NCBI GenBank assembly: GCA_944380265.1 | Contig: CALWGY010000002.1 | Coordinates: forward strand, 3,556-67,555 | DNA length: 64,000 nucleotides | Source of the DNA: an uncultured Clostridia bacterium | GTDB taxonomy: Bacteria > Bacillota > Clostridia > Christensenellales > UBA1242 | Direction of reading: 5' to 3' | In this document: piece after piece, positions 12,363 through 12,944 of the stretch | How the letters are laid out: every line of letters starts with the position of its first letter | Numbering within the stretch: the first letter of the stretch is position 1 | Made by a program: the position numbers and the translations under genes | The notes under the pieces: generated by a model | What the model was told of the DNA's origin: nothing | Database searches by the model: none | Seen by the model: the letters and a program-made list of their open reading frames with translations, nothing else

Positions 12363-12603
12363 ATTTTATTGAAACATTCGAAAATGTTATTTTATCTTCT
12401 AAAATATCATTAATTAAATGTAATTGGTTTGTTAATTCTTCTAAACGATTAACGTATTTACGTGCCAATTTATCAAATGAAGTAAAATTGCAACTTTTTC
12501 TAAATAAACAATAATACAAATATTTATTTAGTTCCTTTTGCAATAAAAAAATCTCATTATAAATTTTTTTTCTTTCAATTTCCAAATTATTTTTGTTAAT
12601 CAT
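12340..12603 (-). CDS. copy-1-specific small regulator candidate (87 aa), divergent from the HTH gene
   Basis: Only the C-terminal 20 aa (LEDKITFSNVSIKFESFLVK) are shared with the copy-2 counterpart. The identity breakpoint at 12399 lies inside this ORF. Confidence 0.45.
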   Translation of the reverse strand: MINKNNLEIERKKIYNEIFLLQKELNKYLYYCLFRKSCNFTSFDKLARKYVNRLEELTNQLHLINDILEDKITFSNVSIKFESFLVK

Positions 12604-12689
12604 AATTAATCCTTTTTAGAAGTTTTTATTCTATTTATATTTATTATAAGAAGAAAAAGGGTGTATGTCAACAATTTTTAGAATAAATA

Positions 12690-12718
12690 TTGCTAAAAAT
12701 TTTAAAAAAATATAGAAT
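12690..12718 (+). promoter_or_regulatory. candidate sigma-70-type promoter of the copy-1 HTH gene
   Basis: TTGCTA, 17 nt, TAGAAT, upstream of the aaggag SD and ATG 12738. Confidence 0.35.
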
Positions 12719-12737
12719 ATGAAAAAAAGGAGAAAAA

Positions 12738-12944
12738 ATGAAAATATTAGAATTAAGAAAACAAAAAAAATTAACACAACAAAACATAGCTGATTTTTTA
12801 GGAATTTCTCAAAGGGCATATGCAAATTATGAAAATAACAAAAATGAACCCAATATAACAACATTAATAAAATTAGCAAATTATTATAATGTGTCATTAG
12901 ATTATTTGTTAGAAAGAGATTTTCAAGGGGGATTCGAAACATAA
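12738..12944 (+). CDS. Xre-family HTH repressor, copy-1 allele (68 aa; 3' end created by the inter-copy junction)
   Basis: LTQQNIADFLGISQRAYANYENNKNEPNITTLIKLANYYNVSLDYLL is a classic Xre HTH. It is roughly half identical, by eye, to the 107-aa allele at 21311. It ends ..DFQGG-FET*, with the last codons coming from att-proximal DNA. Confidence 0.75.
   Translation: MKILELRKQKKLTQQNIADFLGISQRAYANYENNKNEPNITTLIKLANYYNVSLDYLLERDFQGGFET

Follow-up and report, generated by a model that had tools for sequence, protein, structure and literature searches.

Alternative, probably immunity-type cassettes on the common backbone of a putative inovirus-like tRNA-Ser prophage on a metagenome scaffold from a Clostridia bacterium

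The immunity regions of lambdoid phages (imm-lambda, imm434, imm21) comprise the repressor, divergent promoters with their operators and the first early gene, and form a replaceable block with sharp breakpoints of identity. To our knowledge, filamentous phages of Gram-positive gut anaerobes are nearly unstudied, and the control of their lysogeny is unknown. In the filamentous phage CTXphi of Vibrio cholerae (rstR/ig-2 alleles; CTX-CTX and CTX-RS1 arrays), near-identical backbones carry strongly diverged repressor and intergenic cassettes. Repression by these alleles is allele-specific, so that different alleles co-integrate (PMC11509585), and new phage DNA arises from tandem prophages by an RCR-like process between adjacent copies (PMC4439123). 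The CRESS-Rep/inovirus chimeras ctbe30 and ctbc27 (Tisza et al. 2020) are circular 6-10-kb genomes from animal faeces with a CRESS-like Rep, ZOT and other inovirus genes, and genomes of this type also match bacterial chromosomes, according to the passages of the paper that describe them (PMC7000223). Neither in those passages of PMC7000223 nor in two GenBank records of bajarodino viruses did we find immunity alleles, tandem forms or integrase-less derivatives, and a full-text literature search for 'bajarodino' retrieved no paper.

The DNA analysed here, a 64-kb stretch referred to as the window, is part of a metagenome scaffold (ENA ERZ28614714, scaffold_64, 189 kb; sample SAMEA6814453) whose host is an uncultured low-GC Bacillota/Clostridia bacterium; no rRNA was found in the window. 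Judging from its gene content and ends, the locus probably holds a ~10-kb inovirus-like prophage inserted in the 3' end of a tRNA-Ser gene. The left end of the integrated element or elements (attL, 4352-4376, + strand) is a 25-bp copy of the tRNA-Ser 3' end (TTTGGCGGAGAGTTAGGGATTCGAA), which is repeated exactly at 23072-23096 (attR, + strand), the 3' end of tRNA-Ser(TGA) itself (23074-23161, - strand); 0 such matches are expected by chance. The block of identity runs from T54, the first base of the T-loop, to 2 nt beyond CCA, and the element restores the 3' end of the tRNA. A tyrosine integrase of 440 aa (21671-22993, + strand; Phage_integrase E = 8e-17, phrog_1 E = 1.8e-57) lies near one end, so that the arrangement, with direct repeats equal to the tRNA 3' end, is that of tRNA-integrating tyrosine-recombinase elements. 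A single element measures ~10.1 kb between the att sites and has all its genes on the - strand except three (a 97-aa gene, Xre and Int). Among the related elements that we located on other metagenome contigs (L-numbered loci), the single-copy prophages L011 and L012 have the same attL context as the window, and relatives of ~50% identity occur in MAGs titled uncultured Clostridia, Lachnospiraceae and Bacillota.

The replication module is of the CRESS type. Rep (15657-16631, - strand; PF02407 Viral_Rep E = 5.5e-11, PF00910 RNA_helicase E = 4.6e-7) carries HUH motifs I-III and, after them, an SF3 helicase with both Walker motifs, A and B (FLTINNP at residue 10, HFQVFL at 50, YCTK at 88, GPPRTGKT at 171, LVLDEF at 210). 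Near rep we observed, in both copies of the repeat described below, a stem-loop with a 15-bp stem and a loop A-TAGTATTAC, that is, a nonanucleotide of the NAGTATTAC type: at 8160-8199 (- strand; nonanucleotide 8175-8183) in copy 1, and at 16722-16761 (- strand; nonanucleotide 16737-16745; fold z-score -7.65) in copy 2. Two 19-nt iteron pairs were found, that of the copy-2 origin at 16854-16872 and 16937-16955, and a GC hairpin lies nearby (16790-16822). Bajarodino virus 13 and 5 MAG relatives also have the nonanucleotide TAGTATTAC directly upstream of Rep. The Reps of the GenBank 'bajarodino virus' inoviruses are 33-37% identical to the present one and their Zot 31%, and one such genome has an integrase and a repressor; they and ctbe30 and ctbc27 are only distant relatives of this element. 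A search for close relatives in IMG/VR by Rep returned none.

Positions 4367-12399 (copy 1) and 12929-20961 (copy 2) of the window are identical over 8,033 bp with 0 mismatches, both backbones reading on the - strand, and this is the only long run of identity at an offset of 8,562 bp. Copy 1 encodes, all on the - strand, proteins of 91, 368, 413, 324 (Rep), 138, 281 (Zot-like), 70, 117, 304, 91 and 78 aa, followed by the tail of an 87-aa ORF. The original prediction placed an abrupt end of identity at 12399/20961, which proved correct to the base. Alignment of the 529 bp after copy 1 (12400-12928) with the matching stretch after copy 2 showed that the two modules are homologous and strongly diverged, not near-identical. 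Their reconvergence over 20 bp (AGAGATTTTCAAGGGGGATT) was likewise found as predicted, exact at 12915-12934 and 21488-21507. A special role of this 20-mer as a conserved regulatory or att-like site was considered and rejected: it does not align with the att core beyond GGGATT, it encodes the conserved residues RDFQGG, and full-length Xre1 and Xre2 remain ~70% identical past it. The hexamer GGGATT (12929-12934) forms the final 6 bp of the 20-mer and the opening 6 bp of the 8,033-bp repeat and also lies inside the tRNA-derived att core; therefore, the right edge of 12400-12928 is a fusion junction and not the natural end of a cassette. The earlier size of ~0.5 kb for the swapped region holds for copy 1 (529 bp) but not for complete elements, whose variable cassette spans ~0.9 kb and includes the whole Xre gene and the first ~65 integrase codons.

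The part of the first cassette kept in copy 1 (imm1, 12400-12928) contains the 5' part of the 87-aa gene, divergent promoters with candidate operators and the HTH domain of Xre1. The complete second cassette (imm2, 20962-21870) has, besides the 5' part of an 88-aa gene and divergent promoters, the entire Xre2 gene and ~65 codons from the start of the integrase. The 87- and 88-aa genes (12340-12603 and 20902-21168, both - strand) are the imm1 and imm2 alleles of the first gene of the leftward operon. Their N-terminal ~64 aa (64 aa in imm1) are cassette-specific and do not align. That only their C-termini are shared had been predicted correctly, but the shared part is 23 aa long (22/23 identical) and not 20. 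Neither protein gave a usable family match in Pfam (E up to 10) or PHROG, and a homologue search with the 88-aa protein, an orphan, returned its own cluster alone. On the opposite strand, the 68-aa repressor remnant Xre1-delta (12738-12944, +) retains a complete HTH_3 domain (E = 2e-19), its C-terminal ~40 aa being replaced by F-E-T-stop, and Xre2 (21311-21634, +) is a full-length repressor of 107 aa (HTH_3 E = 1.5e-17; phrog_8 E = 1e-25). The HTH domains, judged earlier to be roughly half identical, indeed share 36 of 68 residues (53%), and the C-terminal parts of the full-length alleles ~70%; at the start of the presumed recognition helix Xre1 has ISQRAY and Xre2 ISLGTY.

In both cassettes the repressor diverges from the early operon, with intact back-to-back sigma-70-type promoters and ribosome-binding sites. 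The intergenic regions (12604-12737 in imm1, 21169-21310 in imm2) are ~55-60% identical. In imm1, the leftward promoter (12643-12671, - strand) is TTGACA-17-TATAAT, a 12/12 match to the consensus, and the rightward promoter of Xre1 (12690-12718, + strand) is TTGCTA-17-TAGAAT (9/12). The imm2 pair, TTGAAA-17-TATAAT rightward for Xre2 (21259-21287, + strand) and TTGCTA-17-TATAAT leftward (21212-21240, - strand), scores 11/12 and 10/12. Two dyads were identified in imm1: TAGAA-N7-TTCTA (12617-12633), downstream of the leftward promoter, and TAGAA-N7-TGCTA (12679-12695), which lies between the two -35 boxes and overlaps that of the Xre1 promoter. The pattern TAGAA-N7-TKCTA occurs twice in the 64-kb window, both times in the imm1 intergenic region; it is absent from imm2, which carries other palindromes (21200-21213 and 21229-21248). 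The TAGAA-N7-TKCTA dyads are predicted to act as operators. With their promoters, complete HTH domains and private dyads, both switches look functional.

A survey of related prophages, which the original prediction had called for, showed that imm1 and imm2 are real alternative cassettes on one backbone and att site. The imm1 cassette was found in L002, L004, L005, L007, L008, L027 and L028 and the imm2 cassette in L011-L015 and L026, and either occurs in other samples with the same backbone, integrase body and tRNA-Ser att site. L002 is a full-length imm1 element whose Xre has 107 aa and whose integrase has 427 aa; it matches the window at 99.8% over the backbone and at 100% from 21996 to the att site. 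Compared with L002, the imm2 element of the window shows 41-86% identity until ~21870 and 95-100% thereafter. L011 and L012 carry imm2 in single copy, in the same chromosomal context as the window. All imm1 loci share one left breakpoint (window 20961-20974). The 529 bp of imm1 are 100% identical in L002-L005, L007 and L008 (L006 and L009 are covered in part), as compared to 92-99.8% for the backbones of these loci, and imm2 is 99.9% identical across L011-L015. Each cassette is thus conserved at 99.9-100%, against backbone differences of up to 5-8%. Alternative alleles at one position of otherwise homologous genomes, with sharp breakpoints, are a feature of immunity cassettes of the lambdoid or CTXphi type, and diverged cassettes on one backbone are the usual pattern of heteroimmune variants, a known kind of feature. 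The prediction of heteroimmune variants or module exchange is therefore supported as regards the alternative cassettes, invariant across diverged backbones, but copy 1 is not a complete heteroimmune prophage.

In fact, copy 1 derives from a complete imm1 element, by recombination between the two GGGATT sequences of the circular genome. At the fusion junction (12929-12938, + strand), the GGGATT microhomology of Xre gene and att core is followed by CGAA, the remainder of the core, and then by the left arm of the element. Full-length Xre1 reads GGGGGATT and then AACCACC; the window and L003 read GGGGGATT and then CGAAACATAAC; attL reads GTTAGGGATT and then CGAAACATAAC. Within the element GGGATT is present in the Xre gene and in the att core and nowhere else, and its site in the Xre1 gene (GGGATTAACC) is a candidate recombination site. 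As in tRNA-targeting tyrosine-integrase elements with T-loop crossover, att identity starts here at the first T-loop base; unlike in them, the last 10 bp of the core are joined, at the middle junction, inside the repressor gene. The ~1.6 kb missing from copy 1 encode the C-terminal end of Xre and the integrase and also hold the P arm and 15 bp of att core, which leaves this copy with neither an integrase nor a normal attP. Its Xre1 is cut at 68 of 107 aa (39 residues missing) and may have lost part or all of its activity; L002 is among the loci that have the full-length allele of 107 aa. What remains is a unit of 8,562 bp in which the origin, Rep, the Zot-like gene and every presumed structural gene are still present. 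The same junction was found in L003, a closed circle of 9,713 bp from an unrelated run, in which Rep is intact across the join and the integrase is absent; its backbone differs, a 655-aa gene standing in place of the 413- and 368-aa genes. Since it recurs in an independent sample, the junction is real. The exact junction pattern was absent from IMG/VR and the JGI metagenomes, the normal attP pattern (P arm-core-left arm) was absent from IMG/VR, and among the fetched contigs there was no closed circle of a full-length element.

We consider it probable that a ~10-kb inovirus-like tRNA-Ser prophage has two alleles of its immunity (lysogeny-switch) cassette, that 12400-12928 belongs to one of them, and that copy 1 is an imm1 deletion derivative, either in tandem with the imm2 prophage or threaded into it during assembly. 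In each cassette, a rightward Xre-type repressor gene lies opposite the first gene of a leftward early operon leading to the Zot-like ATPase, Rep and the membrane proteins; two back-to-back promoters lie between them, and the pair in each cassette has dyad-symmetric sites of its own. From the divergence of the sequences and by analogy, the repressor of each allele is expected to shut its own leftward promoter only, in which case an imm1 genome could enter, or replicate in, an imm2 lysogen. The 8,562-bp unit would exist as a circle, and its place in the scaffold would reflect either a tandem with the imm2 prophage or threading by the assembler. A true tandem might have originated by homologous recombination in the common 8 kb or by integrase action at GGGATT as a secondary site.

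The replaceable-block layout inside otherwise homologous genomes is the same as in the lambdoid immunity regions; those phages are tailed and have dsDNA, whereas here the first early gene is not recognisably Cro-like and the cassette reaches into the integrase N-terminus. The similarity to CTXphi extends, in the scaffold arrangement, to the origins of the two copies, which point the same way, lie 8,562 bp from each other and bracket imm1; the tandem and the allele specificity are putative here. Unlike CTXphi, the element resides in a Gram-positive-type host among uncultured Clostridia/Bacillota, replicates with a CRESS-type Rep with SF3 helicase and an TAGTATTAC origin instead of RstA, and uses its own tyrosine integrase at a tRNA gene instead of XerCD at dif. 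Excision should therefore be possible, and a tandem is not obligatory. The upstream partner also differs from RS1 in that it retains every presumed structural gene; what it lacks is the integrase and the C-terminal part of the repressor.

The same cassettes could have merely diverged, with Xre proteins that cross-repress and a mosaic produced by neutral recombination or by selection on the first early gene or the integrase N-terminus. The identity that the HTH domains and the C-terminal parts retain speaks for this, the operators are guessed in very AT-rich DNA, and the cassette covers non-repressor sequence too. We nevertheless regard cross-repression as unlikely, because divergence is highest in the intergenic DNA, the HTH and the first early gene, which is the known arrangement of immunity regions; moreover, the imm1 dyad is private to imm1, the presumed recognition helices start differently, and both cassettes persist as separate blocks that do not vary internally and share their left breakpoint. 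As to the phage nature of the element, a hydropathy scan gave membrane proteins of 91, 304, 368 and 413 aa and, among the called genes, no convincing 40-80-aa single-TM candidate for a major coat protein, nor were there family matches to one. For this reason, a filamentous virion is deduced from the Zot/pI-like P-loop morphogenesis ATPase (17424-18269, - strand) and from relatives filed under Inoviridae. The genome is otherwise small, mostly on one strand and of rolling-circle type (HUH Rep and origin), as in inoviruses. CRESS-type Reps of this sort are also known on bacterial plasmids, and with no coat protein recognised and a modest match of the ATPase to phrog_197 ('Zot-like toxin', E = 1.2e-6), the element might be an integrative, plasmid-like one whose ATPase and membrane proteins serve another function. 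This seems quite improbable, given that the protein annotated as Zot in bajarodino virus 12, whose circular genome is classed in GenBank as Inoviridae, shares 31% identity with the ATPase (tblastn, E = 1e-24), that a zot of an Inoviridae sp. matches it as well (E = 2e-6), and that the order Zot-then-Rep is kept in 6 MAG prophages (L018-L023). Chimeras of CRESS-Rep and inovirus genes with both coat and ZOT genes are, in addition, described in the relevant passages of PMC7000223.

As regards copy 1, the missing 39 residues of Xre1 and the loss of integrase and normal attP would suit the non-functional debris of an old tandem prophage, in which truncated repressor and absent integrase have no present role. 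We rejected this highly improbable reading, which for one module would have spoken against the original prediction: all 8,033 backbone bases match the intact copy, which means no decay, the imm1 promoters, ribosome-binding site and HTH domain are intact, and the occurrence of the junction on the L003 circle, with an intact Rep and another backbone in another sample, indicates that the derivative is being propagated. Whether it is physically linked to the imm2 prophage is a separate matter. Since the window comes from a metagenome scaffold, the fact that the two copies are 100% identical cannot count as independent evidence for a physical tandem, and the scaffold would look alike for a true tandem and for one prophage with a circular variant that the assembler threaded in as a loop of the graph. 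Accordingly, the earlier statement that the structure is no trivial assembly duplication is right in that the unique junction is real, but an 8,562-bp unit that has 8,033 identical bases in common with an adjacent prophage looks exactly like such a loop. Copy 1 may thus really be a free circle: beside one imm2 prophage at tRNA-Ser there would be an imm1-delta genome in circular form, perhaps housed by different cells of the species, and the two would have been written as a tandem because they share ~8 kb and the assembler walked the common node twice. We give this reading slightly less than an even chance; it leaves the immunity-cassette interpretation valid, the physical linkage alone being artefactual. 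Consistent with it, the copies show 0 differences in 8,033 bp against 0.2-8% between samples, as expected of one node traversed twice, the extra unit exits the common node via imm1 and re-enters at its first base, the one other sample with the junction has it on a closed circle, the related strains L011 and L012 are single-copy, and the truncated Xre is recorded in one large assembly only. The tandem arrangement itself is present in one assembly (deposited in ENA and NCBI). On the other hand, filamentous prophages are commonly found in tandem arrays (PMC4439123), and a circle with 8 kb of identity to a resident prophage would readily recombine into it; a circle with this junction could equally be the source or the product of a tandem.

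If the tandem were real, Rep could nick between TAGTATT and AC in copy 2 and stop at the copy-1 origin; as in CTXphi arrays, no excision would be needed to release exactly the imm1-delta circle of 8,562 nt. The locus might then produce phage in the manner of CTXphi/RS1, here in a gut bacterium of Gram-positive type: the integrase would have joined an incoming or resident genome at a secondary site, the GGGATT of the repressor gene (resembling the T-loop half of attB), an integrase-less imm1 unit with a truncated repressor would have come to lie upstream of the complete imm2 prophage, and Rep, copying from the copy-2 to the copy-1 origin, would release an 8.5-kb heteroimmune, obligately episomal (chronic) filamentous phage able to spread by itself. 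This is conceivable but unlikely; were it true, a temperate inovirus would have become a non-integrating one in a single natural step, and the L003 junction on another backbone would mark a successful, recombining derivative lineage.

Returning to the two immunity cassettes, the locus offers a testable pair of switches, with two repressors, two promoter regions and candidate operators on an identical backbone, and, in addition, a natural integrase-less derivative and a clearly defined CRESS-type origin. Heteroimmunity of the cassettes would explain the coexistence of two variants of one small phage in one host population and would extend the rstR model of CTXphi to a very different lineage. 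For genome scans, the locus is a caution: what a metagenome scaffold shows as a perfect tandem repeat may stand for a prophage and its circular relative. Genetic code 4 (Mollicutes) was considered for the window and rejected; the set of ORFs was essentially the same under code 11, which was therefore kept. The AF2 model of the 88-aa protein was unusable (pLDDT 41), and the single-sequence AF2 model of the 87-aa protein gave a two-helix hairpin (pLDDT 79).

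The two copies of the repeat were identical over 8,033 bp (4367-12399 and 12929-20961, 0 mismatches), the sole long run of identity at the 8,562-bp offset, and the identity ended as abruptly at 12399/20961 as the original prediction had it. Beyond this point the copies were, as foreseen, homologous and strongly diverged: 12400-12928 (hereafter the imm1 switch region) and the sequence from 20962 onward (imm2) aligned at about 41-63% nucleotide identity, and the HTHs of the two Xre proteins (12738-12944 and 21311-21634), expected to be about half identical, shared 53% over 68 residues. 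Both Xre ORFs (68 and 107 aa) are rightward and contain a complete HTH_3 domain. The leftward ORFs straddling the breakpoint, of 87 aa (12340-12603) and 88 aa (20902-21168), did have only their C-terminal end in common, but this comprises the last 23 residues and not the last 20. The 20-bp reconvergence was exact (AGAGATTTTCAAGGGGGATT at 12915-12934 and 21488-21507); it was considered as a special site and rejected as such, being the final conserved Xre stretch (RDFQGG) ahead of the fusion point described below.

The 3' end of a tRNA-Ser(TGA) gene (23074-23161, minus strand) is repeated at both ends of this region: TTTGGCGGAGAGTTAGGGATTCGAA, consisting of the final 23 nt of the tRNA plus 2 nt, occurs at 23072-23096 (attR) and 4352-4376 (attL), with 0 matches expected by chance, and therefore the DNA between 4352 and 23096 is integrated. 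A 440-aa tyrosine integrase (21671-22993) adjoins the tRNA, along with Xre2, the imm2 repressor. Among the products of the long leftward operon are several membrane proteins and a 324-aa Rep, which combines a Viral_Rep domain (PF02407) with an SF3 helicase and has every HUH and Walker motif. A 281-aa P-loop ATPase from the same operon matches the PHROG 'Zot-like toxin'; the protein annotated as Zot in a GenBank inovirus is 31% identical to it (E = 1e-24). Upstream of rep, on its coding (minus) strand, lies an origin stem-loop with a 15-bp stem and the loop A-TAGTATTAC (16722-16761 and 8160-8199). The same nonanucleotide precedes rep in 'bajarodino virus 13', a GenBank inovirus, and in five MAG prophages whose Reps are roughly 50% identical to that of the element; this is a textbook CRESS-type origin, in a bacterial prophage. 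Two 19-nt pairs of iterons (AATGTGGTAATGTGGTAAA) are located at 16854-16872 and 16937-16955, and a separate 11-bp GC-rich hairpin (16790-16822) may serve for complementary-strand initiation or for packaging. In one MAG relative (L023, 9933-10782), a stretch of roughly 400 bp that includes the rep start is directly duplicated (80% identity), which puts a partial Rep copy in tandem with a full one.

Since it combines the att/tRNA arrangement, integrase, Rep, Zot-like ATPase and origin, the element is an inovirus-like prophage that integrates at a tRNA gene and measures about 10.1 kb. Its host is uncultured and of Clostridia/Bacillota type (GC 29.7%, code 11). No coat protein was recognised among its genes, so we infer the filamentous particle. 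Chimeras of CRESS-type Rep and inovirus genes, together with prophage counterparts, have already been published (PMC7000223).

Exact-protein look-ups identified the window as scaffold_64 of the ENA metagenome ERZ28614714 and recovered related contigs from other samples. Two loci in the same chromosomal context as the window (L011, L012) contained a single copy with the imm2 cassette, and in L002, L004, L005, L007, L008, L027 and L028 the imm1 87-aa gene was accompanied by a 427-aa integrase and an Xre of full length (107 aa). L002 terminates in the same tRNA att site; its backbone is 99.8% identical to that of the window, with 100% identity from window position 21996 through the att site. On the identity profile, the variable block of complete elements extends from window position 20962 to about 21870, and takes in two-thirds of the first early gene (its 5' part), the intergenic DNA, all of Xre and the initial ~65 integrase codons. 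The two switch regions are real alternatives, but the cassette measures about 0.9 kb in complete elements rather than the ~0.5 kb first proposed. The 529 bp of imm1 were 100% identical in every locus having them, even where the backbone was only 92-95% identical, and the 909-bp imm2 block was 99.9% identical across L011-L015. Such a discrete, internally invariant and exchangeable pattern is what marks an immunity cassette at the level of populations. This survey of allele combinations in relatives, one of the checks originally proposed, supports immunity cassettes and, at the population level, the proposal of heteroimmune variants or module exchange.

In imm1, a perfect leftward promoter (TTGACA-17-TATAAT, 12671-12643, minus strand) faces away from a rightward one (TTGCTA-17-TAGAAT, 12690-12718, plus strand); imm2 has TTGCTA-17-TATAAT (21240-21212, minus strand) and TTGAAA-17-TATAAT (21259-21287, plus strand). 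The candidate operator dyad TAGAA-N7-T(T/G)CTA occurs at 12617 and 12679, the latter overlapping the -35 box of the Xre promoter, and is absent from the rest of the 64 kb, imm2 included, which has palindromes of its own (21200-21213 and 21229-21248). The start of the presumed recognition helix also differs between the two Xre proteins (ISQRAY vs. ISLGTY). Both switches look operational, and their differences fall where specificity would be expected. By analogy with the imm regions of lambdoid phages and with the rstR/ig-2 system of the Vibrio cholerae filamentous phage CTXphi, the dyads and palindromes may serve as operators for allele-specific repression. For rstR/ig-2, both allele-specific repression and co-integration of differing alleles have been measured (PMC11509585). 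The first early gene products of imm1 and imm2 matched no known family; the model of the imm1 product was a hairpin of two helices (pLDDT 79); that of the imm2 product was unusable.

Copy 1 is not an equal partner of copy 2 but a truncated, integrase-less deletion derivative (imm1-delta), fused at its right edge to the att core. The full-length Xre1 sequence (the imm1 repressor) reads TTTCAAGGGGGATT followed by AACCACCGAAGAA, and the junction in the window and in the related contig L003 reads TTTCAAGGGGGATT followed by CGAAACATAACTAAT. In attL, GTTAGGGATT is likewise followed by CGAAACATAACTAAT, that is, the tail of the att core and then the left arm of the element. In the circular complete genome, the hexamer GGGATT is present only in the Xre gene and the att core; the two sites lie about 1.6 kb from each other and point the same way, and the other strand has none. 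Recombination between the two hexamers deletes the integrase and the P arm together with the C-terminal part of Xre and 15 bp of the core, leaving the observed 68-aa ORF (ending in GGFET-stop). Because att identity starts at T54 of the tRNA, we take the T-loop (ATTCGAA, plus strand) to be the likely strand-exchange region, as in T-loop-type tRNA att sites. GGGATT overlaps this presumed region, and so the junction could stem either from integrase action at a secondary site or from a deletion mediated by microhomology.

The exact 68-aa protein was found in two sources only, namely the 189-kb assembly, deposited with both ENA and NCBI, and the Logan contig SRR30170042_70142 (L003/L025). The latter has a 30-bp terminal overlap and closes as a 9,713-bp circle, restoring the 324-aa Rep ORF across the join, without integrase or chromosomal flank. 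It carries the imm1 block and the junction, both identical to those of the window; its backbone differs by a left-arm SNP, a 655-aa gene replacing the 413- and 368-aa genes, and a homologue of the 304-aa protein that is only 48% identical. This circle rules out both that copy 1 is debris and that the junction is an artefact of one assembly. On this evidence from sequence, the integrase-less imm1-delta derivative is alive and propagating.

The tandem was originally held to be no trivial assembly duplication. The junction recurs in L003 and is to that extent secure, but the tandem itself may be an assembly rendering of one prophage plus a circle. The extra 8,562-bp unit exits the shared 8,033-bp segment via imm1 and re-enters at its first base, which is a simple graph loop, and one traversal writes two necessarily identical copies. 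Since backbones from other samples differ by 0.2-8% and the two copies of the window by zero, a node written twice, or a very recent recombination, explains the identity more easily. However, homologous recombination would easily insert a circle into a resident prophage with which it has 8 kb in common, and CTXphi as a rule forms tandem arrays (PMC4439123). In the scaffold, the origins at 8160-8199 and 16722-16761 point the same way and enclose exactly the imm1-delta unit. Were the tandem real, origin-to-origin rolling-circle synthesis would release an imm1-delta circle without excision, a route described for CTXphi and hypothetical here. Mosaic immunity cassettes and arrays of filamentous prophages are familiar, and inoviruses with a CRESS-type Rep are already reported; immunity alleles with a propagating integrase-less derivative in this Gram-positive-type lineage may be new within the literature searched.

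Other parts of the backbone vary as well. In L003/L025 and L026, a single unrelated 655-aa protein stands in place of the 413- and 368-aa membrane proteins (window 13341-15648), the latter with a Listeria-Bacteroides repeat, and 283/289-aa and 328-aa proteins replace the 304-aa coiled-coil protein (window 19122-20036). These replacements are probably host-recognition module swapping, independent of the immunity cassette. A 97-aa ORF without family match (20381-20674, plus strand, and 11819-12112), opposite in orientation within the leftward operon, is 98% conserved in L003 and was called in all related contigs. In L026 (reverse complement, 70-130), a 23-bp attL repeat (TGGCGGAGAGTTAGGGATTCGAA) has a different flank, from another host background, and thus the same integrase/att system occurs in at least two chromosomal contexts.

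Just outside attL, a 1,038-aa PLD-helicase-DUF3427 protein matched the type IV methyl-directed restriction enzyme of PADLOC (E = 4e-220); the gene before it encodes a NUDIX protein with a match to PDC-S07, a candidate defence family (E = 2e-48; window 251-3798 region). A second, weaker PDC-S07-like NUDIX gene lies across the tRNA (23447-23923), and the two stretches look like a defence island beside a phage integration hotspot. A 186-aa ORF without family match (3848-4408, plus strand) runs into attL, so that its last ~19 codons derive from the att repeat and the phage left arm; at its position, L011 and L012 have ORFs of at least 144 aa (cut at the locus end) and 177 aa. Its C-terminus, or the entire ORF, may be an integration artefact. 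A T-box leader at 50501-50700 (minus strand; Rfam RF00230, 105 bits) represents ordinary host regulation, unrelated to the cassettes.
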